From NCBI GenBank assembly GCA_964016885.1, contig OZ024740.1:178436001-178500000 (forward strand): 64,000 bases of DNA. The letters run 5' to 3'. Each line of letters begins with the position of its first letter. Position 1 is the first letter of the stretch. Positions 6,687-64,000 of this stretch are shown one piece after another. This DNA is from Eledone cirrhosa (Eukaryota). The notes under the pieces were generated by a model. That model saw only the letters and a list, made by a program, of their open reading frames with translations, was not told the DNA's origin and ran no database searches. A program made the position numbers and the translations under genes.

Positions 6687-6754
6687 GTATATATATATAT
6701 ACATACATATATTATATATATTTAACATATTATTCACATATCGAATATATATTC

Positions 6755-7140
6755 TTTTCCATTTATCGTTTTCGGTGTGCCCGGCCGACTGAACTCACTC
6801 GATATGCAAATTAGGCTGCTCAGCCGTTAATCTGCATAAGGAAAGTATATACTTTCTGACGTTCAAGCATCTGGCAGGAAGGTATACGATGCTGACGATA
6901 GCTAATAAGCTTGAAACTAGTACATCGTTCCTGTGTCAGTGTCGAACAAAAAGGCGACGATGGTTGCCTGAACACTGTACGGCGTAATTCGGGCTGTTTG
7001 TTTACAAACAAAGCGAACATTATAATAAATGTTCGGTAAACCCATACGTACATATATATATATATGCATGTATGTATATATATATATACATACTACTGTA
7101 CGTCTGTATACATATATGAATGTACGTGTACATACATACT
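6755..7140 (+). mobile_element. Retrozyme X (~430-bp non-coding unit with canonical HHR)
   Basis: Homologous to 19900-20420 (-) and the tandem dimer at 31405-32258. Confidence 0.8.
6875..6933 (+). ncRNA. Type I hammerhead ribozyme
   Basis: CAGGA-aggtat-ACGATG CTGACGA T AGCT aata AGCT T GAA ACTAGT A CATCGT TCCTG; GUA triplet, palindromic stem III. Confidence 0.88.
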
Positions 7141-7145
7141 TACGG

Positions 7146-9609: not shown

Positions 9610-9640
<31 letters not shown>

Positions 9641-9922
9641 ATATATATTGTTTATACTTTGGGAGGGTCATGTTGCCAATAAGAAAAACACGCACCAAGT
9701 TGCTTTCACTTCAATTTATTATATATTTATAAATTTATAAATTTACAAATCTACAAACTTATAAATTTCTGGTTGGTTGGTTGGTTCCACAACCAGATAG
9801 TTGTTTATATATAGTCATAGTCCTTTCGTCACACACTCTGTGACCTCTTCAGTGACTGGGGATTCCTTTCTTTGTTTCTGTGCCTTTCCTTTCTTCTGTC
9901 CTACGCCATTTTGTTTCTGTGT

Positions 9923-11220
9923 GTTCAAATTTAATGGAAAAACATATGCCCAAGAGGAAGGAGCAGCCATTGGTGTTAGCATTGCAGGCGACATAGCTAA
10001 CTTATTCATGGTATGGTGGGACAGTAGACTTAAACTTAAACTTAAAGAACAATTAGAAGACAGCTTAACCCTGATAATGTACTCCCGCTACGTAGATGAT
10101 ATAAACATCGTAGTTAAGACACCCCCACTAGAGAACAGTCAGGAACTAGAGAAAAACACAATGGAAAGCATCCAGCAAAATAGCAAACTCCATCCACCAC
10201 AGCATTAGAGTCACTATAGACTACCCAAGTAGACACCCCAACCATCGATTACCTGTACTAGACACAGAGCTCTGGTTAGATACCATTAACAACCAAAAAC
10301 AAATCCTCCATTCCCATTATGCCAAACCCATGACTTCCAAACATCTGATCCACCGAAACTCGGCCATTTCGGACCATACCGAAATCAACATACTGATTGC
10401 GGATTTGGTACGGGTGATGAGAAATGTGTCCCGCATATGCAACCCCGAAGAACTAGAGAGACACATACAACACTTCATCCACCGTATGCAGTTCTCTGGC
10501 TACAATCAGAGAGATAGAATCAGAGTGTATAAAGGAGCCAGAACCAAATGGGAAAAAATGGTAAATAATGACATAAATGGGACCTGCCCCTTGTATAGGA
10601 GCAAATTTGGGAATAGAATAGAAAGAACTAGGAACAAGGCCAATAAAATAAACTCATGGTATGATAGCAATAAATACCAGAGTGTAATGTTCATCAATAC
10701 AACCCCTAGAGGCGAACTAGCCTACAAATTTAGAAGGGCCCTAAATAAACATAAACTCAATATTAAGATAGTAGAAAGACCAGGTACCTCCGTAAAAACA
10801 CTTATTAGCAAGACATACCCGTTCCAAAGACCCTCATGTATAGATAAGAAATGTATAACCTGTAAAATAAGCCACCATATTAACTGTATAACTAGAAATG
10901 TAGTGTATAGCATAAGATGTACTGATGGATAATGTAGAAACAAAAATATAGTGTACATAGGTGAGACAGCTCGTAGTATAGGGGAACGGATAAATGAACA
11001 CTGGCGAGACCTTCAAGATAATAAAGAATCATCTGTACTCTACCAACATGCTAAGATAGAACACAAGGGTAAATTAGAGAACATAGAAATAAAAATAGAA
11101 TCCACACACAGAAAAGATGCAATGTTTAGGCAAATTACAGAGGCAGTAAGCATAAAAGAATTACAACCAAAATTAAATAGAAAATATGAGTGGAACAGCA
11201 ACATCACAACTTACAATTAA
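9923..11220 (+). pseudogene. PLE RT/GIY-YIG endonuclease ORF, disrupted
   Basis: Frameshift near 10177 and a premature TAA at 10930 relative to the 62687-63964 copy. Confidence 0.88.
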
Positions 11221-11424
11221 GGACAGAATGAAAACACACACACACATAGAACAAACAACCAACCAACAACATGTAAATAAATAAACAAATAGATAAATGA
11301 ACACAAACACATACAGACACTCGGATGTGGCGCATGCGCAAACTGAGCACACACCACACACACAGAAACAAAATGGCGTAGGACAGAAGAAAGGAAAGGC
11401 ACAGAAACAAAGAAAGGAATCCCC

Positions 11425-11469
11425 AGTCACTGAAGAGGTCACAGAGTGTGTGACGAAAGGACTATGACT
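11425..11469 (+). ncRNA. Minimal type I hammerhead in the Naiad-like 3' UTR
   Basis: AGTCA CTGAAGA g GTCACA gagtg TGTGAC GAA AG ga CT A TGACT. Copies at 9813-9857(-), 40700-40744(-), 41795-41838(+), ~44027-44070(-), 45287-45331(+), 62345-62389(-). Confidence 0.78.
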
Positions 11470-11711
11470 ATATATAAACAACTATCTGGTTGTGGAACCA
11501 ACCAACCAACCAGAAATTTATAAGTTTGTAGATTTGTAAATTTATAAATTTATAAATATATAATAAATTGAAGTGAAAGCAACTGGTGCGTGTTTTTCTT
11601 ATTGGCAACATGACCCTCCCAAAGTATAACAATATCGGTTTCAACACACGATTTCAGATAAAGAATCTTGCTAAACAAATTCAGAAACGAAATATATATA
11701 TATATATATAT

Positions 11712-14096: not shown

Positions 14097-14115
14097 AGAA
14101 GATAATATCGGCCAA

Positions 14116-17100
14116 TCAGACGTTATGAGTAGAAACACAGAGAGTAATCGAATCCGGAACGACGTACTTGTGGAATGAACCTCTCAACCCCGGGATCATG
14201 CTTGTATTCATTATACAGATACTCACAATATTGTTTATAGCTCCAAATGCAACAGCTTCTTCCACCTCTCTTGCGTCAAACTCACAAGGCGCATGTCGGA
14301 CTCCTGCACCGGTGGCACTGCCCATCATGCTTAACTACCCTGACACCGCAGGTGGTCACGGGCGCCCAACCCAACGGAGACCTGAAACCACTCGACTCGG
14401 AGGATGTCTGGTAGCGATCTCCCTCCTCAGGCAGTCGCGGAGAGTCATCACCAGGATCTCCAAGTCTGCCCGCACTCTCGTGGCTGAAACACAATCGACT
14501 TCAATCGACCGAGCGCTTGACTCGGGCGATCCACGGGACTGGACCGAACTATTCAGTTTTGCTACTCTCGTACTCGGGATCCCGTTGATAGGGAATCCGA
14601 TGAGGAGAGACAGGTCTGACCCTCCCTGGCTTCGAGGCTCAAGGGCAATGTCGCCTCTTCCTGCGACCCTTCATCCGCGAACCTCTCGGCACACTCGTGC
14701 TGCCCACCAGTGCCAACTCAATGCCCCCAATTCACCCCGACAGCACGAAACATCTCAAACTAATTGAGGGCGACGTTCGTGTGCTGGCCTCAAGCGACGC
14801 TGAGCTCAGACCAACAAAAGATGTTTTGTCAGCGTTTCGGCTCAAACATCCGGACTCTTTTGCCGACATCCGGGACGCTCCAGACCCGGCCAGCAATCTC
14901 TCCCCAGCAGCGTCCAGCGAGGACGTGGTAGCCGTCCTAAGATCTTTTCCTGCTTGAGCCCAAGTCACCTCCGAGACCTCATCTCGTCTTACGCGGCGGA
15001 AGCAGGGGCCCGACTGCTCCAGTCATTAACAGCCCTCTCTAACTGTCTCCACTGCACCAGCTTGCCCAGCCATGCCAGCAATCATTTCTTCTCAGCCAGC
15101 CTGACGACCCTGAGGAAGAATGAAGGAGGAGTCCGCCCCATTGTGGTGGATAACGTCATCCGACGACTTGCAGTCAAGAGAGCTTGCAAGTCAGTCAAAG
15201 ACGACTTGAGAGAGGTACTAAGCCCTGTCCAACTCGGAGTGGGAATCAAGTGCGGTTGTGAGGCCGCAGCTCATGTGGGCAGACACTGCATGGAACATGC
15301 GCCTCCCCAGTGACCCCACCTTGTAAAGCTGGACATGACTAACGGCTTCAACAGCGTTTGACAGGATCACGTCCTAGAGACATGTCTCAGACGAACCCGC
15401 TCCATATACCCCACCTTCACTTTTCGCACAGAGAACCAAGCTCACTCATGGCTGCTGACAACAGAGTTACTTCCACCAGAAGTGTCCAGTAGGGGGCCCC
15501 ATTCGGCACGCTCCTATTCGCGCTGGCAATCGATGATGTAGCGCGATGGGTCTGGTCACCACTCAACGTTCTGTACCTCGTCGACGCGATCCTGAGCAGT
15601 CCGGCTGAGATAGTAGTTGAGTACCTTCGACAAATCATCCCAGCTCTAAAGCTCCTTGGACTTGATATCAACCCAACCAAGTCTGAGGTGACCAACATCA
15701 GCTACGGAGAAGCTGAATTCCGCAATGTCGTAATATGCTCCCGTCCCATCCCGGCCGGGTCTGCAAGGGCGCTGCATTCATTCTCAGTTCCCACATTCTC
15801 CCGAAAGCCATAAGAGAATGCCTGGAGACCAAGCATGCGGATTCGACCCGATTAGCCAAGCGGCTGTTCCTCATTGACGCTCATCCTGCGCTCTTCCTCT
15901 TGAGGAACTGTTTCACCCTCGCCAAATTCACATTCACCCTGTTCGGTGCACCTTGCCACCCCCACAATGATCTTCTTGTGGAACTTAATTTCACCATTCG
16001 ACGCTGTGCGGAACTCATCTGCAATGTCAGTTTCGAGAGCGCAGGCTGGCAACAGGCGACACTCCCAGCGAGGTTTGGGGGCCTCAGCCTCCGGTCATCT
16101 TCGGATCTAGCTATACCTGCCTACCCTTCCTCTATCTCCTACTGTCACGCTCTCGTCAGCGAGGTTCTCAGCCAGACGGCTGAATCTGACCTGGCCCCTG
16201 AGATGGAACAAACTCTGGCCTACTGGACAGGTGAAGACCTCTCTATCCCACAGTATACTACGGTCCAACGTAACTGGGACAACATCAATTGCAGGTCTTC
16301 TGTCAGGCGGATCAAGTTGGCTTGGACCAACACCACCTCGCCTGCCTCCGTTCCACTTCTCAGCCCAACAGCGGCGCGCGGCTCAATTCGGTGCCCTCCT
16401 TATCAACTGGTACCCTTCTTGATGATGAGTGCACTCGCATTGAATTAGCCCAACGCCTTGGCCCCTCGTATGTGAGCCTCATAAATGCCGCTGCGAGGCG
16501 GTTGTTGACAAGTTCGGCTTGCATCCTCTGTCTTGCCGCCAAGCGGAGGCTGGTTCCCCCGACACGCCGCTCTCAATGACATAATAACAAGGAGCCTGGA
16601 CGCAGCTGGCTTTCCATCTCAACTGTAGCCAGCAGGCCGAGACCACGGAGATGGCAAGCGCCTCGACGGAATCAAGCTCTTCCTATTTGAAGGGGGTAGA
16701 TCCCTCATCTGGGATGCCACCTGTTGCAAAACTTTCTTCGCCTCTAACTTAGTTGCTTCGGCCACAAACCACGGCATCGCGGCCTGCCTCGCAGAGGTAT
16801 GTAAAATAAACAAATATCGGGGTTTCTCCAGAAGATTCCTTGTCGCACCGGTCGCCGTCGAGAGCTCAGGCGTACTTGGACCCCATACTGCCGAGCTCCT
16901 CCTTAAGATCGGAACGTCGGTAGCCTGTCTGAGGAGGGAGGCCCGTGAGGCTGGTTGGCAGTTGCAGCGGTTGTCACTAGCTATCGCGGGGCGCAGCACT
17001 TCTTCCCCCTTGCCCTAGGCGCAAAGTCCAATCACCCTCCCCTTCACTCCTCCCTTTTTCTACGATACCAGAGCTCTTGCCTTTCCACCCCTTCCCTTCC

Positions 17101-18771: not shown

Positions 18772-18960
18772 ATAATTGTTTCTACTTTTGGCACAAGGCC
18801 AGCAATTACCCAGTACATTGCTGGTACTTTATTTTATCGACCCCGTAAGGATGAAAAGAAAAGTTAACGTCGACGGGATTTGAACTCAGACCGTAGAGGG
18901 ACGTAACTATGCTGGAAAGCATGGCGTCTGACCCTCTACCGATACTGACAATTTACCGCG
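18772..18960 (-). mobile_element. tRNA-derived SINE
   Basis: Matches the SINE consensus. Confidence 0.88.
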
Positions 18961-19512: not shown

Positions 19513-19878
19513 TAACGTGATATTCCTTGTTCGATCGTTATACACAAAGCTTATATTTTTAAGCAGACTGTATTTTGATTTAGGTGTCACAGGAACTCTA
19601 CATCGGATTTTAACAGCAATTCCGGGAGTCCAGGTCTGGTTATCACTTATTTTTTATCATTTATTTTGTTTTGACCTGTTTAGCTTGATTTGGTTTTTGG
19701 CTTGGGTGGTTAATGCTTTCTTGACCACCTTTTCAGTTTTGTATGGCTTCTTAACACATTGTTTAGCTCTGGTTTTTAACTATTGAGCACTTTGCCAGTA
19801 TCATTTCTGATTTTTTGCGTTTCGCTTCGCTTTTCCTGCCCGCCGAAAATGCGATTCTCGCTGAATCTTTATTTGTAT
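19513..19878. repeat. Unclassified dispersed repeat Y
   Basis: Homologous to 32258-32428, 32678-33030, 34022-34243 and, diverged on the opposite strand, 35688-36270. Confidence 0.7.
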
Positions 19879-19899
19879 ATATAAATATATATACATACA

Positions 19900-20420
19900 T
19901 AAATGGAATAGAATCAAACGAAATTTCATTTCTCACACTTAGTACGGCACTTACTTAAATGTAAGTATGTATGTATACGTACATACATATATGTATACAG
20001 ACGTACAGTAGCATGTATATATATATATATATATACATACAGGCACACCTATATATATGCACGTATCAGTTTACCGAACATTTATTATAATGTTCGCTTT
20101 GTTCGTTTGTAAACAAACGAACAGCCTGATTTACGCCGTACAGTGTTTAGGCAACCACGTCACCTTTTTGTTCAACACTGACACAGGAATGATGTACTAG
20201 TTTCAAGCTTGTTAGCTATCGTCAGCACCGTATACCTTTCTGCCAGATGGTTGAACGTCCGAAAGTTTATACTTTCCTTATGAAAATTAACGGCTGAGCA
20301 GCCTAATTTGCATATCGAGTGAGTTCAGTCGGCCAGGCGCACCGAAAACGATAAATGGAATAGAATGAAACGAAATTTCATTTCTCACTCTTAGGGCGGC
20401 ACTTACTTAAATGTAAGTAT
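19900..20420 (-). mobile_element. Retrozyme X, more than one unit (HHR at ~20184-20242)
   Basis: Terminal redundancy 19901-19975/20353-20425; CTGACGA..GAAACTAGTA on the minus strand. Confidence 0.8.
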
Positions 20421-20481
20421 GTATGTATCGAAACGGTTTGAGCTCTGCCGTCGGGGTCATATATTTTCCCATATACAGTAT

Positions 20482-20956
20482 ATATATGTATTTCAATTCA
20501 TTGATATCAATATAGTAATAATATCGATGTAAACATACACAGGTTTGTAGGTTTCTACGTGTTTCTGTGTGTATGTCCGTGTGTGAGAGTGTGTGGTGAG
20601 TAAGAGGATGAGGGGGAAAGAAAGAGAAAGCGAGAGAGAGACTATGTATATATATGTATAAGTGCACATCAAGACACGTGTATGAAATTAGATTCTGTAT
20701 AATGTGAATATAATTGTTTCTACTTTTGGCACACGGCCAGCTATATCCCAGTGTATTACTGGTACTTTATTTTATCGACCCCATAAGGATGAAAGGCAAA
20801 GTTAACCTCGGCGGGATTTGAACTGAGACAATAAAGGTCCGTAACTCTTTGCTTGCAAAACATGGCGTCTGACCCTCTACCGATAATGTGAATATAATGA
20901 ATATAAGAGTGTTTAAACAGCCTGTAATTTCATATGCATACATCCATATATATGTA

Positions 20957-28851: not shown

Positions 28852-28896
<45 letters not shown>

Positions 28897-28899
<3 letters not shown>

Positions 28900-29427
28900 A
28901 GATTTGAATGGATACAGTTTAGTTGAAAGGAATTTATTGACACGTGTTTCTATAACAGTTACATAACCTAAAACAGCTATCTACAAACTTTTAGTTATGC
29001 AGACATTCAATATTTCAATGTTATTATTTACTGTCATTTCATCAGAATAATATTACTGAGGACCTATTTAGTTTTTATAGAGAATATTAGGAGGGAGGGG
29101 TGAAGTTGTTAGAAGAATAGTTGAAGGAGTGGTTTTTCGATAGCAGTGAGGTCCTCAGTAATATTATTCTGATGAAATGACAGTAAATAATAACATTGAA
29201 ATATTGAATGTCTGCATAACTAAAAGTTTGTAGATAGCTGTTTTAGGTTATGTAACTGTTATAGAAACACGTGTCAATAAATTCCTTTCAACTAAACTGT
29301 ATCCATTCAAATCTTTCTATTTTTCTCCGGATTACTTTTGGAACTACAACTGGAACCGTCGAGCAAACTCTACGTGAGCTGATAATCTACTGTGTGTAAT
29401 ATTTATATTACAACACAACGGAAAATA

Positions 29428-29539: not shown

Positions 29540-30957
29540 ATATTAATAAGAGGAATTCCAACTTTGTCTGATTTACTCGTTTTATTTACAATGCTTTAAA
29601 ATTTATAATGGTATTATAATGAAATAGTATGATAGAATATCAAATGTTAAGTGTTAATTGAACAAGTACTTTCATGCTTTCTCAATCTTCATGTTCATAA
29701 TGTGTGGTGACAGTCAAGTTTGCAATTTTCAACTGTAATGAGATGGGTAAATTTTGTACCTTATATGCAGTGAAAAGTGGCTCCAAAATGCTAAATCTTG
29801 CAAACTGTATTTCGACCAATCGGTGTGTAGTTTCACTGAATTACTAAAGCTGATTGGTTTAAGCATCACGGTTGGTTGAGCATGTCTAACGAGCAATAAT
29901 TGATCCTATCCAAAGCATCAATTGTTTTGCTATTTTTAGAAATGATGAAAATAGCATTTTCTAGTAAGCATCACCATCAACATCACTTTTATTATTATTA
30001 TTATTATTATTGTTGTAGTTGTTGTTGTTAGTGGTCGTAGTCGACATGGTCGTAGTCATAGTGATAGTAGAAGTAATACCCCTAAGCGTTATTATTGTTC
30101 ATTTAGCTTGGGTTTGAATTTATCAATAAAATTCTTTTCTTTGATTTTTCTCTTGATTTCACTTGGGCTGTGTAATTTATAGTATGGGAATATTATAAAT
30201 ATTCCCTGACCACATGTTGCTAGATGGTTACTTAGGGGTATCTGACGGACATTTGGGTCTCTGATTTGCTGACGTCAGATACCCCTAAGTAACCATCTAG
30301 CAACATGTGGTCAGGGAATATTTATAATATTTCCATTCTACAAATTACACAGCCCAAGTGAAATCAAGAGAAAAATCAAAGAAAAGAATTTTATTGATAA
30401 ATTCAAACCCAAGCTAAATGAACAATAATAACACTTAGGGGTATTACTTCTACTATGACTATGGCTACGACCATGTCGACTACGACCACTAACAACAAAA
30501 ACAACAATAATAATAATAATAATAATAAAAGTGATGTTGATGGTGATGATTACTAGAAAATGCTATTTTCATCATTTCTAAAAATAGCAAAACAATTGAT
30601 GCTCTGGAAAGGATCAATTATTGTTCGTTAGACATGCTCAACCAACCGTGACGCTTAAACCAATCGGCTTTAGTAATTCAGTGAAACTACACACCGATTG
30701 GTTGAAATACAGTGTGCAAGATTTAGCAATCTGGAGCCACTTTTCACTGTATATAAGGTACAAAATTTACCCATCTCATTACAGTTGAAAATTGCAAACT
30801 TGACTGTCACCACACATTATGAACCTGAAGATTGCGAAAGCATGAAAGTACTTGTTCAATTAACACTTAACATTTAATATTCTATCTTACTATTTCATTA
30901 TAATACCATTATAAATTTTAAAGGATTGTAAATAAAACAAAGTTAGAATTCCTCTTA

Positions 30958-31000: not shown

Positions 31001-31404
31001 AGAAAGAAGAGTGACATGGTTTGCTATAGAATAAGGACTTTATTCCATTGCTGACAATTGTTTCTCTGAACTGGTAGGTCTAGAGATCGCTACCCGCCTA
31101 TTTTTGCGCCAATCGATCACCAATACTTTGTTATAACCAGTCAATTCATCAGGGAATGCGTGAATGAAGGAAATACACAGGCATGGCTTCTATATATAGT
31201 AGTGGCATTAAATCAGAACAGTAATAACAATACTAACAATACTAAAAATACTCGAATAAATTATCTAGACCGTAAATAGTTAAAATAATCACAACATCAA
31301 TCTAAGTAAGACATAGAGTATACTGACGACTTTAGCATGTAAAACGAGCTGATACGAAGCAGATGTATGAAATTGATATGTAAAAGCTGTCATTATATAT
31401 AGTG

Positions 31405-32258
31405 TACGTATACATACTTATATTTAAGTAAGAGCCGTACTAAGAGTGAGAAATGAAATTTCGTTTCATTTTGCCCGTTTAGCGTTTTCGGTGCGTTCGG
31501 CCGATTAACTCACTCGATATACAAATTAGGCTGCTCAGCCGTTAATATACATAAGGAAAGTATATACTTTCATACGTTCAATCATCTGTCAGGAAGGTAT
31601 ACGTTGCTGACGATAGGTAATAAGCTTGAAACTAGTAGAGTGTTCCTTTGTCAGTATTGAACAAATGAGCAACGATGGTTGCTAGTCACTGTACGGCTTA
31701 ATTCGGGATGTTTGTTTACAAACACACCGAGCATTATAATAAATGTTCGGTGAATCCAGACGTACATATATATGTGTGCATGTATGTATATATATATACA
31801 TACTACTGTACGTCTGTATACATATATGTATGTATGTATACATACTTATATTTAAGTAACAGCCGTACTAAGAGTGAGAAATGAAATTTCGTTTTATTTT
31901 TTCCGTTTATCGTTTTCGGTGCGCCCGGCCGATTAACCCACTCTATATGCAAGTTAGGCTGCTCATCCATTAATATGCATAAGGAAAGTATATACTTTCA
32001 GACGTTCAATCATCTGGCAGGAAGGTATACGTTGCTGAAGATAGCTAATAAACTTCAAACTAGTACAGCGTTCCTTTGTCAGTGTTGAACAAATGAGCAA
32101 CGATGGTTGCTAGACACTCTACAGCTTAATTCGGGATGTTTGTTTACAAACACACCGAGCATTATAATAAATGTTCGGTGAATCCATACGTGCATATATA
32201 TATGTGTGCATGTATGTATATATATATACATACTATTGTACGTCTGTATACATATATG
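31405..32258 (+). mobile_element. Retrozyme X tandem dimer (period 428 bp; HHRs at ~31590-31648 and ~32018-32075, partly decayed)
   Basis: TAAGAGTGAGAAATG at 31441 and 31869. Confidence 0.82.
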
Positions 32259-32748
32259 TGTTTTTGGCTTAGGTGGTTAATGCCTTCTTGACTGCCTTCT
32301 CACATTGTATCGCGTTTATAGCTCTGTTTTTTTAGCCATTGGAACGCTTGCCAGCATGACTCTGAATTTGCGTTACGTTTCGCTTTTTCTACCCGCCGAA
32401 ATGCGATTCTCGGTGAATTTATATTTGTATTAATCTCCCGAGTCTTACAATTAACCTGTTAATAATTCTATTGACAGATTAATTGCATAAGTTATATTTT
32501 AAAAACTACCTGGTTGAGTGCTTATTCGATTTGTGCTATTTATTTAATTTTTTGCATGATTTACACATACTGAATTCATTTGCCAAATTCTGGGTTTTTC
32601 CCCTTTTGAGTTACACATGTGCTTTTACAAAACACTTCGTCACCCACAATACTGGTCCAGAACAAAATAGCTGTTGATAACGTGATATTCCTCGTTCGAT
32701 GATTATTACAAAAGCTTATGGTTTTAAGCAGACAGTATTATTGATTTA

Positions 32749-32960
32749 GCTGTGGATTGGCCGTATCGGTAGAGGGCGGTGGATTGGCAGTATCGGTAGA
32801 GGGTCGGACGCCATGCTTTCCAGCATAGTTACGTCCCTTTACGATCTGGGTTCAAATCCCGCCGAGGTTGACTTTGCCTTTCATCCTTACGGGGTCGATA
32901 AAATAAAGTACCAGTAATGCACTGGATAATTGCTGGCCTTGTGCCTAAAGTAGAAACAAT
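32749..32960 (+). mobile_element. tRNA-derived SINE with duplicated head; TSD ATTAYTGATTTAGCTGT
   Basis: Head GTGGATTGGCMGTATCGGTAGAGG occurs twice; inserted into repeat Y. Confidence 0.88.
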
Positions 32961-33044
32961 TACTGATTTAGCTGTCACACAATCCGTAGGTTTTGATTTT
33001 ACCATCGATTCCAAGGGTCCAGGTTAGTTATATATATATATATA

Positions 33045-34024
<980 letters not shown>

Positions 34025-34238
34025 TTATATGATTTATTTTGTCGGATCTGTTTAGATTGACTTGTTCTTTTGGCTTAGGTGGTTAATGCCTTCTTGACCG
34101 CCTTCTCAGTTTGTATGGCGTTTATAACCTATGTTTATAGCTCTGGTATTTTAGCCATTGGAGCGCTTACCAGCATGACTCTGAATTTGCGTTACGTTTC
34201 GCTTTTTCTACCCGCCGGAATGCGATTCTCGCTGAATT

Positions 34239-34430
<192 letters not shown>

Positions 34431-35633: not shown

Positions 35634-35685
<52 letters not shown>

Positions 35686-36271
35686 AAACATAAATTATCG
35701 AGATTCGCATTTCGGCCTACGATATAACGAAAAACAACCTCCGAGATGTGCGGCAAGTGCTCAATGATTCAGAAGAACCAGACCTATAACAAACGTTAAA
35801 GGCCAAACACACTGAGACGATGGTTAAACAATCATTCGCATAGCCCCAAAAAAACGATCGAGTAATTCGGGTATTGAAAATTTACCCGGACCCCTGGAAG
35901 GTTGGTAAAATCCAGTATATGGGTTTCTGCGGCTCCTAAATCAAGTAGCGTCCGCTTACATATATAATGTCAGGCTTCTGGTAAGATGATTGAACAAGGA
36001 AGCCACTTTCTCAACAGGTTTTAGTTCAATGTTAATACAAGGACTGACCATTGCTGACCCCACGTGGGGATCGGCAAGGGAGACAACCCCTATATATGGC
36101 GAATGTATTCAGTTGTGTATATTCTTGCAAGAATGCAAAAACATCACAAATCGAATAGAGTTCTCAGCAGAAGGGTTAAAATAAACATAAGCTATTCATC
36201 AGTTAATAGAATCAACTAAAAAATCAAGAAAATTAACTGGTCAATAGCTAGAGTCTGGAGAATAATACAAA

Positions 36272-39200
36272 CATCAGATAAAATAGGGATACATGATATG
36301 AAGCTTAAAAAACACTTGTGAATAGTGAAGTTTTAAATCAACATATGAAAAATAATTTAAGATTGATGTATGAGATTGGGAAAAAGTGAGGGGGGTTGGA
36401 AAAGGTAAGGAAGAGGAGAAGATGAGAGTAAAGAATGGTGGGGGAGGAGTATAAGAAGGAAGGATGAGAGAGGAGGAGAGATGGGTGATAGAGAGAGAGA
36501 GATAGCCTTTACAATTGAGAAAAAATATATATTGTCCCACAGAGAGAAGTTAAAAAGCCGTTGGAAGATAATAGATAATTTAAAAGAATTTGAAATTAAA
36601 AGTTAATGAGGTTTATGCATGAAAAGAAAAAGCGATTAAGAATAATTTAAATTAAGGTTTGTATATTGAAGGGTTTAATAATATGTGCGAGGAAAAGAAA
36701 TTATTAATATGTATTATTAAAATTAAAATAATAATGTTATTAAGGATATAATGTGAAAAGAAGTAGAAGAATGAATGAGTTATGAATTTAGAGGAATTAG
36801 TTAGGGTTTAAGTTTGTTTTTATGTAATGTAATATGTGTGCGTAATATGTGTACGTAATTAGTTTGTTTAAAAATGAGCGCAGAAGGCAAAGAAGAAAAT
36901 AATCTTTAAGGAAGAAAATATCTAACATCAAAAAATATATATGTTTACGAAATATTTTCTAATGGTAATAATATAATATATTAAAAGAAATTAGTCGGGA
37001 TTTAAGTTTGTTTTTATGTATTGTAATATGTAAAAGTCAAACGAGCATGAAAGGATGAGATAAGGAATTTAAGGAAGAAAAATCTAACGTAAAAAAAAAT
37101 GTTTATGTTTACGAAGGATTATTAAAGGTAATTAAAAAAATAATAATAAGTACAGATTAGAGGTTAGAAATTAAAAGAAAAGAGGAAGAAAGGAAAGTGA
37201 TAAAGAGGAATGATATAGAACGAGTAACTTGTATTATATAATATATAATAAATAATATTGAAATAAGGTAGAAAGATGGGTATATTTTTAAAGGTTATAT
37301 AAGCCTTTGAGAAAAAGGATTTTAAACTAGTAAGGTATTAGATATTAGCTGTATACTTTATGGAATGTTATGTGGAATTTATGCAAGCAGAGAGGAAATA
37401 AATCCGTGCGTCTATTTATTATAGAATTAAAATTAGATATAATGGTAAATTTCTCAGCTGGGGAAATATTACATGTTCTGGATAGGGAGGCATTCAAGTA
37501 GGGAGAGGCAGAACAAACTTTTCTCCAAGAAAAGTTATAGTTAATATTTATGTCTTTCAAGGACCATATGAGTTCTGAGAGTGCCGTGTTAGTTCTTTTA
37601 AGTTGGTATATAAAAGACGAATTGTGATTATAAAATCTAGCTTTGAAGGAGGTGGAAGTGGTACCGAAATAAGCGAGGGAATAAAAATATCTTCGATGCT
37701 AACGCCAATTACTATAATAATGCGCTTTCTAAAGCCGGTTATCCTGATAAAATTAAATACAGTAAAGAACCCAATCCTAGAAGGTCTTACAGTAAAATAA
37801 TTAATTAGGATCATTCCAATAACTTAAATAAAAGACCTAGATACAAAAATATAATCTGGTATAATGCTCCTTTTTCTATTTCTATTAATAATAATATTCC
37901 TAAACTATTCTTTAGGGCCTTAGATAAATGCTTCCCTCCCTCACATATCTATAGTAAAATCTTTAACAAACATACAATAACATTTTCCTATTCCACTTCC
38001 TCCAACATCTCTAACATTATCTCTAAACACAACAATAAAATATTAAATATTAAATCACATCCTTCCAACACTGAGCGTCATAATAATAGCAGTAGTACTC
38101 CCGACGTCATTGTTAACTCTAGGCTAGATTCTGTAAATTCAAATACGACGTCAAACGTAACTTCGTTGAATGTTCATAATACCAATCTAAATCAGGAAAC
38201 TATTATTCCTATCGTAAATAACTTCTCCAATCCAATTCCTACTATAAATAACAATAGATCACTTGTTAATAACTCTGTTAATTTCTCTAATCGCAATTGT
38301 AATTGCCCTGTTAGAACTAAATGTCCTCTCAATAACCATTGTCTTGATAAAAAACTTAGTCTATGAATGTAAGGTTATAACTGATACCAATTCCTTTACC
38401 TATTTCGGTTCCAGCTTCACCTCTTTCAAAGCTAGATTTTATAATCACAATTCGTCTTTTAGATACCAACTTAAAAGAACTAACACGGCACTCTCAGAAC
38501 TCATATGGTCCTTGAAAGAGAAAAATATTAACTATAACATCTCTTGGAGAAAGGTTTGTTCTGCCTCTCCCTACTTGAATGCCTCCCTATCCAGAACATG
38601 TAATCTTTGCCTAGCTGAGAAATGTACCATTATATCTAATTTCAATTCTATAATAAATAGACGCACGGATTTATTTTCTCTCTGCTTGCATAAATCCCAC
38701 ATAACATTCCATAAAGTATAGAGCTAATATCTTTACTAGTTTAAAATCCTTTTTCTCAAAGGCTTATATATCTTTAAAAAATATACCCATCTTTCTACCT
38801 TATTTCAATATTATTTATTATATATTATATAATACAAGTTACTCATTCTATATCATTCCTCTTTATCACTTTCCTTTCTTCCTATTTTCTTTTTAATTTC
38901 TAACCTCTAATCTGTACTTTTTCTTCCTAACTACTTCACAATTCTTATTTTTACTCACCACAACATTATCCATTCTTCCATCTTTCCTTATATCATTGGC
39001 CATAAAAATTATTATTATATTTTTAATACATTATAGTATTACCTTTAATAGTCCTTCGTAAACATAAACATTTTTTTTTGACGTTAGATTTTTCTTCCTT
39101 AAATTCCTTATCTCATCCTTTCATGCTCGTTTGACTTTTACATATTACAATACATAAAAACAAACTTAATCCCTAACTAATTTCTTTTAATATATTATAT

Positions 39201-39990
39201 TATTACCATTAGAAAATATTTTGTAAACATATATATTTTTTGATGTTAGATATTTTCTTCCTTAAACATTCTTTTCTTCTTTGCCTTCTGCGCTCATTTT
39301 TAAACAAACTAATTACGTACACATATTACGCACACATATTACATTACCTAAAAACAAACTTAAACCCTAACTAATTCCTCTAAATTCATAACTCGTTCAT
39401 TCTTCTACTTCTTTTCATATTATATCCTTAATAACATTATTATTTTAATTTTAATAATACATATTAATAATTTCTTTTCCTCGCACATATTATTAAACCT
39501 TTCAATATACAAACCTTAATTTAATATTATTCTTAATCCCTTTTTCTCTTCATGAATAAACCTCATTAACTTTTAATGTCAAATTCTATTAAATTATCTA
39601 TTATCTTCCAACGGCTTTTTAACTTCTCTCTGTGAGACAATATATATTTTTTTCTCAGTTGTAAAGGTTATCCCTATCCTTCTATCACCCATCTCTCCTC
39701 CTCTCTCATCCTTCCTTCTTATACTCCTCCCCCACCATTCTTTACTCTCATCTCCTCCTCTTCCTTACCTTTTCCACCCCCCTCACTTTTTCCCAATCTC
39801 ATACATCAATCTTAAATTATTTTTCATATGTTGATTTAAAACTTCACTATTCACAAGTGTTCTTTAAGCTTCATATCATGCATCCCTATTTTATCTGATG
39901 AAAACGCAGATATCAACCCATGATGATATTTGTTTTTGAAATGCGCATAATAAAATACTTGGAACTCTTTTAACCATCTTTTGATCTTAT
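36272..39990 (+). mobile_element. PLE family 2: 5'-truncated copy (37660-39990) with ~1.4-kb inverted arm (36272-37650)
   Basis: IIWYNAPFS..FFRALDKCFPPSHIYSKIFNK, CNCPVRTKCPLNNHCL, LVYECKV..YFGS..FKARFYNH (GIY-YIG); long AT-rich 3' UTR ending in an HHR and a TA tract. Confidence 0.88.
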
Positions 39991-40490: not shown

Positions 40491-40549
<59 letters not shown>

Positions 40550-40556
<7 letters not shown>

Positions 40557-42044
40557 ATACTTTGGGAGGGTCATGTTGCCAATAAGAAACACACGCACCA
40601 GTGTTTCACTTCAATTTATTATAATAAATTTATAAATTTAGGAATTTATAAATTTCTGGTTGGTTGGTTGGTTCCACAACCAGATGGTTGTTTATATATT
40701 GTCAAAGTTCTTTCGTCACACATTCTGTGACTTCTTCAGTGACTGGGGATTCTTTTCTTTGTTTTTGTGCCTCTCCTTTGTTCTGTCCTACGCCATTTTG
40801 TTTCTGTGTGTGTGTTGTATGCTCAGTCTGCGCATGCGTCATATCCGGGTGTCTGTGTGTGTTTATATTCGTTTATTTATTTGTTCATTTACATGTTACC
40901 GGTTGGTTGTTTGTTCTATGTGCGTGTGTGTTTTCATTTTGTCCTTAATTGTAAGTTGTGATGTTGCTGTTCCACTAATATTTTCTATTTAATTTTGGTT
41001 GTAATTCTTTTATGTTTATTGCCTCTGTGATTTGTCTAAACATTGCGTCTTTTCTGTGTGTAGATTCTATTTTTATTTCTATGTACTCTAATTTACCCTT
41101 ATGTTCTATTTTAGCATGTTGGTAGAGTACAGATGATTCTTTACTATCTTGAAGGTCTCGCCAGTCTTCATTTATCCGTTCCCCTACACTACGAGCTGTC
41201 TCACCTATGTACACTATATTTTTGTCTCTACATTGTCCTTCAGTACATCTTATGCTATATACTACATTTCTAGTTTTACAGTTAATATGGGGGCTTATTT
41301 TACAGGGTATACATTTCTTATCTATACAGGGGAGTCTTTGAAAAGGGTATGTCTTGCTAATAAGTGTTTTTACGGAGGTACCTGGTCTTTCCACTATCTT
41401 AATATTGAGTTTATGTTTGTCTAGGGCCCTTCTAAATCTGTAAGCTAATTCACCTGTAGGGGTTGTATCGATGAACATTACACTCTGGTATTTATTGCTA
41501 TCATACCATGAGTTTATTCTATTAGCCTTATTCCTAGTTCTTTCTATTCTATTCCAAAATTTGCTCGGTTACTCTCGCCGATTCTGCTGAGGAGGTCCTC
41601 CGTGCTGTCACATACATTTCAATGATGGGGCGTATGATCAGGGAGAGGAAGTAGGACAGTCTGTAGTTACTAGCAATGTTAGCTCCACAGACTGGCCGTG
41701 TTGGTGGCGCAGACTGAGCACACAAACACACACAGAAAGAAAATGGCGTAGGACAGAACAAAGGAGAGGCACAAAAACAAAGAAAAGAATCCCCAGTCAC
41801 TGAAGAGGTCACAGAATGTGTGACGAAAGAACTTTGACAATATATAAACAAGCATCTGGTTTTGGAACCAACCAACCAACCAGAAATTTATAAATTCCTA
41901 AATTTATAAATTTATTATGATAAATTGAAGTGAAACACTGGTGCGTATGTTTCTTATTGGCAACATGACCCTCCCAAAGTATAACAATATCGGTTTCAAC
42001 ACACGTTTTCAGATAAAGAATCTTGCTAAACAAATTCAGAAACG

Positions 42045-42050
<6 letters not shown>
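40550..42050 (-). mobile_element. Naiad-like PLE: 3' part (40550-41563 -), internal N-terminal fragment (41565-41706 -), inverted arm (41707-42050 +)
   Basis: ORF 40975-41478 is the GIY-YIG domain; termini match the other copies. Confidence 0.9.
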
Positions 42051-43792: not shown

Positions 43793-43794
<2 letters not shown>

Positions 43795-45500
43795 TTTCGT
43801 TTCTGAATTTCTTTAGCAAGATTCTTTATCTGAAAACGTGTGTTGAAACCGATATTGTTATATATTTGGGAGGGTGATGTTGCCAATAAGAAACACACGC
43901 ACCAGTGCACTCCAATTTATTATAAATAAAAAAATCTTTCTAAAATTTTTTCAAAAGTTTTTTTCAATAAATTTATAAATTTCCGGTTGGTTGGTTGGTT
44001 CCACAACCGGATGGTTGTTCATATATTCTCAAAGTTCTTTCGTCACACATTCTGTGACCTCTCAGTGACTGGAATTTTTTTCTTTGTTTTGTGCCTCATC
44101 TTGTTTTTGTGTGTGTTGTGTGCTTAGTTTGCGCATGTGTTACATCCGGGTGTCTGTGTGTGTTTTATTTGTTTATTTATTTGTTTATTTACATGTTACA
44201 GGTTGGTTGCTTGTTCTATGTGTGTGTGTTTTCATTTTGCCCTTAATTGTAAGTTGTGATGTTGCTATTCCATTCATGTTTTCTATTTAATTTTGGTTGG
44301 AGTTCATTTATGTTTATTGCCTCTGTGATTTGTCTAAACATTGCGTCTTTTCTGTGTGTAAATTTGATTTTTATTTCTATGTTCTCTAATTTGCCCTTAT
44401 GTTCTAGTTTCGCATATTGGTGGAGTATTGATGACTCTTTTCTATCTTGAAACTCGCGCCAGTGTTCATTTCACCGTTCTCCTATACTACGAGCTGTCTC
44501 ACCTATGTACACTATATTCATATCTTTACATTCTCCTTCAGTACATCTTATGCTATATACTATGCTTCCAGTTTTTCAGTTAATATGGGGGCTTAGTTTA
44601 CTGATTATGCATTTTTATCTATACAGGGAGGTCTTTGAAAAGGGTATGTATTACTAATAAGTGTTTTTATGGAGCTACCTGATCTTTCTACTATCTTAAT
44701 ATTAAGTTTAAGTTTATCTAGGGCCCTTTTAAATTTGTAAGCTAATTCACCTCTAGGGGTTGTATTGATGAACATTACACTCTGGTATTTATTGCTATCA
44801 TACCATGAGCTCTGTGTTTAGCACAGGTACCTGTATTAGACACTGATCTCTGGTCAGAAACCATTAATAACAAAAAAAAATCCTCCATTCCCATTATGCC
44901 AAACCCATGACTTTCAAATATACTAAAATAGAACATAAGGGTAAATTAGAGAACATAGAAATAAAAATAGAAACACAGAAAAGACGCAATGTTTAGACAA
45001 ATCACAGAATCAATAAACATAAATGAACTCCAACCAAAATTAAATAGAAAACCTAAGTGGAACAGCAACATCACAACTTACAATTAAGGACAAAATGAAA
45101 ACACAAACGCACATAGAACAAACAACCAACCAGTAACATGTAAATAAACAAATAAATAAACGAATATAAACACACACAGACACCAGGATGTAACACATGC
45201 GCAAACTAAGCACACAACACACACACAAAAACAAGATGGCGTAGGACAGAACAAAGGAGAGGCACAAAAACAAAGAAAAGAATCCCCAGTCACTGAAGAG
45301 GTCACAGAAAGTTTGACGAAAGAACTTTGACAATATATGAACAACCGCCCGGTTGTGGAACCAACCGGAAATTTATAAATTTTTGAAAAGATTTTTTGAA
45401 TAAATTTTTTAGAAACATTTTTTAATTCATAATAACTTAGAGTGAAACGACTGGTGCGTGTGTTTCTTATTGGCAACATGACCCTCCCAAAGTATAACAA
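43793..45500. mobile_element. Naiad-like PLE head-to-head pair, more diverged
   Basis: 43793-44810 (-) and 44820-45500 (+) both end at family termini in TA. Confidence 0.88.
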
Positions 45501-61683: not shown

Positions 61684-61727
61684 TATATAAGTAAGAGTGA
61701 GAAATGAAATTTCGTTTCATTTTTTCC

Positions 61728-61788
<61 letters not shown>

Positions 61789-62127: not shown

Positions 62128-62131
<4 letters not shown>

Positions 62132-64000
62132 CGTTTCTGAATTTGTTTAGCAAGATTCTTTATCTGAAATCGTGTGTTGAAACCGATATTGTTATACTTT
62201 GGGAGGGTCATGTTGCCAATAAGAAACACACGCACCAGTTGCTTTCACTTCAATTTAATTTAATATATATTTATAAATTTACAAATTTATAAATTTCTGG
62301 TTGGTTGGTTGGTTCCACAACCAGATAGTTGTTTATATATATATAGTCATAGTTCTTTCGTCACACACTCTGTGACCTCTTCAGTGACTGGGGATTTCTT
62401 TCTTCGTTTCTGTGCCTTTCCTTTCTTCTATCCTACGCCAATTTGTTTGTGTGTGGGTTGCGTGCTCAGTTTGCGCATGCGCCACATCCGGGTGTCTGTG
62501 TGTGTTTGTGTTCATTTTTCTATTTTTCTATTTATATTTGTTTGTTTATTTATTTATTTATTGTTGGTTGGTTGTTTGTTCTATGTGTGTGTGTGTTTTC
62601 ATTTTGTCTTGTGTGTGTTTTCATTTTGTGTGTGTTTTCAATTGTAAGTTGTTTGTTCTATGTGTGTGTGTGTTTTCATTTTGTCCTTAATTGTAAGTTG
62701 TGATGTTGCTGTTCCACTCATATTTTCTATTTAATTTTGGTTTTAATTCTTTTATGCTTACTGCCTCTGTAATTTGCCTAAACATTGCGTCTTTCTTGTG
62801 TGTGGATTCTATTTTTATTTCTATGCTCTCTAATTTACCCCTGTGTTCTATCTTAGCATGTTGGTAGAGCACAGATGATTCTTTACTATCTTGGAGGTCT
62901 CGCCAGTGTTCATTTATTCGTTCCCCTATACTACGAGCTGTCTCACCTATGTACACTATATTTTTGTTTCTACATTGTCCTTCAGTACATCTTATGCTAT
63001 ATACTACATTTCTAGTTTTACAGTTAATATGGGGGCTTATTTTACAGGTTATACATTTCTTATCTATACATGAGGGTCTTTGGAACGGGTATGTCTTGCT
63101 AATAAGTGTTTTTACGGAGGTACCAGGTCTTTCTACTATCTTAATATTGAGATTATGTTTCTTTAGGGCCCTTCTAAATTTGTAGGCTAGTTCGCCTCTA
63201 GGGGTTGTATTGATGAACATTACACTCTGGTATTTATTGCTATCATACCATGAGTTTATTCTATTGGCCTTGTTCTTAGTTCTTTCTATTCTATTCCAAA
63301 ATTTGCTCCTATACAAGGGGCAGGTCCCATTTATGTCATTATTTACCATTTTTTCCCATTTGGTTCTGGCTCCTTTATACACTCTGATTCTATCTCTCTG
63401 ATTGTAGCCAGAGAACTGCATACGGTGGATGAAGTGTTGTATGTGTCTCTCTAGTTCTTCGGGGTTGCACATGCGGGACACATTTCTCATCACCCGTACC
63501 AAATTCGCAATCAGTATGTTGATTTTGGTATGGTCCGAAATGGCCGAGTTTCGGTGGATCAGATGTTTGGAAGTCATGGGTTTGGCATAATGGGAATGGA
63601 GGATTTGTTTTTGGTTGTTAATAGTATCTAACCAGAGCTCTGTGTTTATATCATCAACGTAGCGGTAGTATATTATCAGGGTTAAGGGATCTTCTAATTG
63701 TTCTTTAAGTTTAAGTTTAAGTCTACTGTCCCACCATACCATGAATAAGTTAGCTATGTCGCCTGCAATGCTAACACCAATGGCTGCTCCTTCCTCTTGG
63801 GCATATGTTTTACCATTAAATTTGAACATATGTTCCTTAAGGGTTAATTTTATGCTGGCCCCTACCGCATGTGCAATCATTTTCTTCAGTTCATCGTGGT
63901 TTTCGGGTGTCCGTATGGCTCTGGTCCACCCGTTCCATCTATCTGTGTGGGTTTTCTTGGCCATTGAGGTAATGGTAGGTGGTCTGCCTCTTGCTGGTCT
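62128..64000 (-). mobile_element. Naiad-like PLE (runs off the window end)
   Basis: Same termini, HHR and ORF as the other copies. Confidence 0.92.
62687..64000 (-). CDS. PLE RT + GIY-YIG endonuclease, partial, open frame with an internal in-frame deletion
   Basis: More than 425 aa open; RYVDDIN joins directly to TELWL, about 52 codons missing versus other copies. Confidence 0.8.
   Translation of the reverse strand, partial: RPARGRPPTITSMAKKTHTDRWNGWTRAIRTPENHDELKKMIAHAVGASIKLTLKEHMFKFNGKTYAQEEGAAIGVSIAGDIANLFMVWWDSRLKLKLKEQLEDPLTLIIYYRYVDDINTELWLDTINNQKQILHSHYAKPMTSKHLIHRNSAISDHTKINILIANLVRVMRNVSRMCNPEELERHIQHFIHRMQFSGYNQRDRIRVYKGARTKWEKMVNNDINGTCPLYRSKFWNRIERTKNKANRINSWYDSNKYQSVMFINTTPRGELAYKFRRALKKHNLNIKIVERPGTSVKTLISKTYPFQRPSCIDKKCITCKISPHINCKTRNVVYSIRCTEGQCRNKNIVYIGETARSIGERINEHWRDLQDSKESSVLYQHAKIEHRGKLESIEIKIESTHKKDAMFRQITEAVSIKELKPKLNRKYEWNSNITTYN

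Follow-up and report, generated by a model that had tools for sequence, protein, structure and literature searches.

A probable non-LTR retrozyme with a type I hammerhead motif in the cephalopod Eledone cirrhosa

Retrozymes, a class of hammerhead-bearing repeats, have already been described for coral, mussel, axolotl, frogs, and many other animals. In the mussel Mytilus galloprovincialis, units of 350-390 bp combine a type I hammerhead with head-to-tail arrangement, low GC content, lack of coding capacity and extensive self-pairing, in a genome that also contains Penelope-like elements (PLEs) (Cervera and de la Pena 2020, PMC7229834). The same study reports efficient cleavage for most of its invertebrate motifs and shows circle closure by an RtcB-type ligase for the axolotl and mussel elements. 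Two of its axolotl motifs, HHR_Amex1, whose helix III is a single base pair with a palindromic tetraloop, and HHR_Amex2, which has a U.U mismatch at the base of helix II, gave 6% and 22% cleavage in monomeric form and performed much better when dimeric, and the U.U mismatch accompanied weak monomer cleavage (PMC7229834). The canonical metazoan hammerhead is given as a helix I of 6 bp, a helix II of 4 bp and a helix III of 1-2 bp closed by a palindromic loop (PMC4209133).

PLEs themselves carry minimal hammerheads of type I in their pseudo-LTRs, with a palindromic loop III, dimer-type cleavage, a long helix II, a short helix I, an additional base at the 5' end of helix II and a flanking ORF (Cervera and de la Pena 2014, PMC4209133). 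Among PLEs, a CX4CxxC linker characterises Neptune and Nematis, and a role in steering Neptune to microsatellites has been proposed for it (10.1101/2021.04.23.441226). A recent survey by Li, Clavereau, and Pollet drew on 31 vertebrates, 3 insects, and 1 coral, and only one of nine predicted Xenopus dimers cleaved (10.64898/2026.07.22.740005). According to a 2020 review, animal retrozymes have no conserved motif that points to their mobiliser (PMC7761336). No cephalopod hammerhead or retrozyme was found in the literature searched, including passages of PMC5680766 and PMC7761336, and the supplementary lists of PMC7229834, the 2026 preprint, and Lunse et al. may contain some; similarly, the consulted parts of a 2026 repeat annotation of O. 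vulgaris (PMC13282606) and its supplement present no retrozyme case.

The window analysed here is the whole 64,000-nucleotide stretch of E. cirrhosa contig OZ024740.1 (GCA_964016885.1, positions 178,436,001 to 178,500,000 of the forward strand), numbered from its first letter. A BLAST search of the window with one unit located four copies, A to D, and a fragment, E (Table 1), which together occupy about 1827 bp, or 2.9% of the window. An earlier reading of the letters alone (the sequence-only reading) had proposed a monomer, a more-than-unit copy and a dimer; all three were recovered by BLAST and TRF, and fragment E had been missed. For the dimer (31403-32259), TRF gave a period of 428, 2.0 copies, and 92% matches. 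The unit measures 428-452 bp, at the top of the range of about 150-450 bp stated for metazoan retrozymes (PMC7229834), has a GC content of 36-38% and is non-coding, the longest ATG frames in its copies being 77, 47, and 58 aa; a tRNA search of the window found none. Pairwise identity was 91.9% for A and B, 92.1% for C and D, and 85-89% between the AB and CD copies, which are divided at 18 alignment columns, so that two subfamilies are represented in the window. The predicted circular unit has 65-70% of its bases paired, at -133 to -137 kcal/mol, and its z-scores (-7.2 for B and -8.6 for C-D, equalled in none of 60 shuffles each) are partly inflated by the TA-rich palindromic segment. In addition, the octamer ATGCAAAT at 6804-6811 (plus strand) is found in A and B, is altered in C and D, and occurs at eight other places in the window; it offers a weak lead to a putative snRNA-type promoter element. 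A newt precedent for such a promoter was looked for in the literature and not found.

Table 1. Copies of the repeat in the window and parts of the hammerhead motif in copy A.
Feature	Position	Strand	Remark
Copy A, near-monomer	6751-7142	+	lacks about 55 nt of unit; (TA)n on either side
Copy B	20428-19899	-	452-nt unit plus 66-78 nt repeated (1.15 units); core 20225-20195 intact
Copy C, first unit of dimer	31403-31830	+	core intact, 31607-31637; one G.G mismatch each in helix I and helix II
Copy D, second unit of dimer	31831-32259	+	G12C at 32056 breaks catalytic core; helix I fully paired
Fragment E	61684-61732	+	within long (TA)n; same unit end position as copy B
TA/TATG-rich self-paired segment of unit	7046-7142	+	copy ends concentrated on its 3' side and over the following 70 nt; putative priming region
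Core type I hammerhead, copy A	6886-6928	+	sequence motif and pairing
Copy A helix I, ACGAUG/CAUCGU	6886-6891/6923-6928	+	6 bp
Copy A CUGACGA	6892-6898	+	core strand
Copy A U.U, base of helix II	6899/6912	+	mismatch
Copy A helix II, AGCU-AAUA-AGCU	6900-6911	+	4 bp, AAUA loop
Copy A GAAA	6913-6916	+	core strand
Copy A palindromic ACUAGU helix III (loop CUAG)	6916-6921	+	one base pair
Copy A GUA, predicted cleavage 3' of A6922	6922	+	sequence motif
Copy A extended hammerhead	6861-6947	+	distal helices 6861-6866/6942-6947, 6871-6879/6929-6939
Copy A AGGUAU bulge in helix I extension	6880-6885	+	three further helices prolong helix I

Copy A contains a perfect canonical type I hammerhead, including the extended and bulged stem I, the AAUA loop 2 and the GUA triplet that the sequence-only reading had described. 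Its claim of a full hammerhead holds for this copy and has to be narrowed for the others: B retains an intact core with a single C.A mismatch in helix I, whereas C and D are damaged, the former by two G.G mismatches (one per helix) and the latter by the core substitution (giving CAAA) together with a C.A mismatch in helix II. Because the core of D is broken, the dimer present here should be unable to release a monomer. The U.U mismatch at the base of helix II, which the sequence-only reading had not mentioned, is found in all four copies, and the two stem I variants noticed earlier, ACGATG/CATCGT and ACGTTG/CAGCGT, are real and correspond to A and D, respectively. A strict descriptor (helix I of at least 6, helix II of at least 4, palindromic loop III) found the motif in none of 200 block-shuffled windows, and a loose descriptor returned 16 motifs in the real window versus a mean of 0.025 in shuffled windows. 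Rfam returned no hammerhead for 6740-7040 at E<=10 and, on the whole window, only microsatellite-driven miRNA matches among the best 150 of 252. Exact-pattern scans gave no match in metagenome contigs, prokaryote genomes or viral contigs, and a looser scan of viral contigs gave 18 loci, none with both helices and none similar to the unit.

Folding costs were calculated as nearest-neighbour energies, tertiary contacts being left out. For copy A, the cost of adopting the active fold is +6.8 kcal/mol in the monomer and +0.4 per ribozyme in the double hammerhead, and B, C, and D are worse than A; for the genomic dimer, the double-hammerhead fold lies 26 kcal/mol above the free fold. This modelling favours cleavage as a double hammerhead over cleavage as a monomer, and dimer dependence is likewise predicted from the palindromic helix III of one base pair. 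The idea that the ACTAGT stem III suits dimeric cleavage is therefore backed by the calculated energies for the motif, while the dimer actually found in the window is itself defective. The AGGUAU bulge and loop 2 (AAUA or AACA) appear to be suitably positioned for loop 1-loop 2 contacts.

The motif shares its helix III with HHR_Amex1 and its U.U mismatch with HHR_Amex2, so that one motif, in an invertebrate, combines both weak features; in this it differs from the axolotl motifs and newt satellite 2 as they are described. Dimer dependence as predicted here also differs from the efficient cleavage of most invertebrate motifs in PMC7229834. The minimal hammerheads of PLEs are likewise of type I with a palindromic loop III and dimer-type cleavage (predicted in our case), but the motif here has helices of 6 bp and 4 bp and no ORF. 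The hammerhead repeats of Schistosoma mansoni, to which the architecture had been compared, are also short and of type I, and in them loop 2 lies opposite a bulge in helix I. However, in the Schistosoma hammerhead the base of helix II is a G-C pair and helix III is firmer, unlike in the motif here; the resemblance is confined at most to the helix I bulge and loop 2, and helix III and the U.U mismatch are amphibian-like, as in axolotl.

Public contigs were examined on a 1171-nt stretch around copy B, on which lay 11189 contigs of run X1 and 9924 of run X2, which represent one sample, possibly the window's own source, and are not independent of the window; 38 and 155 contigs came from runs X4 and X5, which are labelled as other organisms. 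A search of the public runs with copy A listed none of RNA, which carries no information about expression. Summed depth reached 0.5-1.8 million over the unit and 20-50 thousand over an adjoining repeat, Y. Over most of the far flank it was 65-485, and a difference-free contig there had a depth of 8.9. A copy-number survey had been suggested earlier: summed depth and contig counts show a very large family, but summed contig depth is no copy number, the contigs are of unrecorded kind, and 19864-20049 was skipped as repeat. The head-to-tail junction was detected in 26 (X1) and 21 (X2) loose ends. No invariant core base was hit among the 26 of 59 variable places listed for X1, and contig 19 of run X4, with 12 differences, has an intact core except at the variable N7. 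The helix I pair 20228:20192 varies but stays paired throughout: copy A has A-U, B has G.U, D has U.G, and contig 28 of run X5 has U-A; covariation among the four window copies was not significant (73 of 500 shuffles were as high).

Broken copies of a Neptune/Nematis-type PLE are present in the window (9620-11693, 40549-42048, 43794-45390, 62128-64000, and 1-1526), with reverse transcriptase (RT), CX4CxxC linker and GIY-YIG parts whose Pfam domain scores fall below curated cut-offs, inverted 5' pieces, and a 3' tail leading to (AT)n. The RT fragment 337-1047 has its best protein match, at 69% identity, in Octopus vulgaris. Six minimal hammerheads (9852-, 11430+, 40739-, 41800+, 45293+, and 62384-, signs giving the strand) belong to these PLEs, and five PLE termini adjoin (AT)n. 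The retrozyme unit co-occurs with autonomous-type PLEs in the window, and no RT/GIY-YIG ORF lies beside it at any of the four window loci, contrary to the possibility, raised earlier, that it is always fused to a coding PLE. Local alignments of the unit with PLE terminal repeats scored within the shuffled range for all seven repeat termini of the window. The 10-mer GAAACGAAAT has eight occurrences in the window, five at PLE termini and three, inverted, in a hairpin of the unit; this is a post hoc observation and may have a chance origin.

Additional hammerhead families, in which helix I has 8 bp and helix II is long, were found at 11898-, 13595+, 39895+, 60757-, and 60812+, and at 59226- and 59334+. 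The first of these has a palindromic AUGCGCAU helix III and terminates an inverted PLE-like structure (35672-39980), within which frames at 37809-38721 resemble a PLE C-terminus (two unnamed matches). A separate type I family, at 30825-30860 in the inverted repeat 29579-30938, has a 3-bp helix II capped by GAAA, with a U.U at its base, and a palindromic AGUACU helix III. A CUGAUGA...GAAA repeat (9152+, 29045-, and 29169+, the latter two in the inverted pair 28857-29320) failed the hammerhead descriptor. Other constituents of the window are a region at 14100-17020 with 45-54% GC and broken frames resembling a non-LTR retrotransposon (no Pfam match in the three frames scanned) and an abundant SINE-like repeat of about 190 bp (32776-32962, 18772-18959, 20710-20896, and about ten more places, some in inverted pairs).

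The ends of the retrozyme copies were numbered from the cut site on a 428-nt circle. Copy A starts at about 257 and ends at 193 or slightly past it, B has its ends at 200 and 273, fragment E at about 231 and 273 (the latter shared with B), and the dimer runs from 193 (C) to 194 (D). All eight ends fall within an arc of about 80 nt (about 193-273), at or just after the TA-rich segment, and none at the cut. Six of the eight lie no more than 6 nt from (TA)4+, compared with 10% of background positions within 25 nt, a comparison made less sharp by the TA-rich end of the unit itself, which obscures the boundaries and could seed the adjoining (TA)n; of the remaining two, one joins a 47-nt head and the other repeat Y. 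No target-site duplication was seen at the copy flanks, which share TA-type words only. As all long copies span the cut site with both flanks, the template was circular or uncut there, and from the position of the ends we infer that priming may occur at (TA)n through the TA-rich segment of the unit. The tie of the ends to (TA)n differs from the retrozymes described in PMC7229834, and circles are only predicted here. As in the elements of Li et al., monomers, dimers, and fragments occur together with PLEs, and the distance from cut to end is similar to that in a PLE terminal repeat; in contrast to that work, homology to PLE terminal repeats was not detected in the window, and none of the window loci (the whole family is a separate matter) is 'active', that is, has two consecutive units with complete hammerheads (10.64898/2026.07.22.740005).

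Repeat Y is part of a non-coding repeat of about 620 bp, WY (35672-36290, 19590-19880, 32260-32605, and 34030-34240), which ends at TA repeats, is arranged W-then-Y at one locus but circularly permuted, as Y-then-W, at another, and adjoins the retrozyme at two of its four loci; no hammerhead, tRNA or Rfam match was found for it, Rfam having included 35690-36300. A composite of retrozyme and repeat Y was ruled out because the two have opposite orientations to each other at B and at D, and because the summed depth of Y is far lower. The 47-nt head (20428-20475), upstream of copy B, equals the unit in summed contig depth; as a part of the unit it was ruled out, because 88 loose ends lead on into different sequence and none of the other loci has it. 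The head probably represents the terminus of a different, abundant repeat and possibly the 3' half of a plus-strand hammerhead.

The unit, the hammerhead motif, the tandem junction, the large family, the clustered ends, the (TA)n setting and the co-resident PLEs argue for a metazoan non-LTR retrozyme, a non-autonomous, ORF-less and PLE-dependent element that would spread through circles and PLE copying with (TA)n priming (probability about 0.74). Every feature of this class that can be tested in sequence is present (hammerhead, unit, GC below 45%, no ORF, self-pairing, PLEs), which supports the assignment made by the sequence-only reading. The repeat is probably moved by PLEs, and self-cleavage and circular RNA are predicted. 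In the proposed cycle, head-to-tail copies would be transcribed, and adjacent hammerheads would pair via ACUAGU into a double hammerhead that cuts after GUA and releases unit-length RNA; a lone monomer would misfold and so be protected. The circle might then be closed by an RtcB-type ligase of the host. A PLE GIY-YIG endonuclease would nick (TA)n, the DNA end would anneal at or near the TA-rich segment of the unit, and the PLE reverse transcriptase would copy one to two or more turns of the circle. The window copies themselves are decayed, three of four hammerheads being damaged and no locus having two intact ones in a row.

The same anatomy might also be produced by a linear non-autonomous PLE derivative (terminal-repeat-only and SINE-like) with no circular stage, in which copies longer than a unit would be partial tandems of the PLE type and the hammerhead would trim read-through transcripts or be a relic. 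Such an origin would agree with ends that are clustered rather than spread round the circle (B and E even share an end base), with window copies that are mostly about one unit long, and with a distance of 194-273 nt from the cut site to the 3' ends, comparable to that in a co-resident PLE (cut at 11464, terminus at 11693). However, all four long copies cross the cut site with both flanks, which implies a template that was joined or uncut, the exact dimer and the recurring junction fit multimeric or circular templates, and the anatomy matches families shown to form circles (PMC7229834), so that we regard a purely linear element as unlikely. If the units were instead pseudo-LTRs separated from an autonomous PLE family with its ORF outside the window, type I hammerheads with a short palindromic helix III would be expected, as reported for PLE terminal repeats (PMC4209133, PMC6765202), and 24 of 57 Xenopus retrozyme families do match known elements, nearly all of them PLE ends (10.64898/2026.07.22.740005). 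The ORF-free neighbourhood applies to the window loci rather than the whole genome; we consider this origin distinctly improbable. An inert repeat, satellite or dispersed, whose hammerhead-like motif is dead or a product of chance would agree with the lack of an Rfam match, the mostly damaged window copies and the non-significant covariation, but the strict motif is absent from all the shuffles, four pairing combinations occur at one helix I position, and the core is intact in a contig of another run, which leaves this explanation with hardly any likelihood.

The retrozyme reading can be extended to a specific partner. The TA-rich segment of the circle would prime at (TA)n tracts where the Neptune/Nematis-type PLE of the window has nicked them, and the GAAACGAAAT hairpin would serve as recognition signal in a very high-copy cephalopod retrozyme. 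This extension is doubtful, but it could be tested in the assembled genome, since the ends lie at the TA-rich segment and mostly by (TA)n, and a PLE that ends in (TA)n is present in the window. As a member of its class the element is unsurprising, and its value is that of a test case. If the extension were true, the GAAACGAAAT hairpin would be the missing cis-signal that ties animal retrozymes to a specific PLE partner, and the element, from an invertebrate, would have a dimer-only hammerhead of amphibian type. If the element is expressed like that of the mussel, it would provide an abundant structured circular RNA in a cephalopod.
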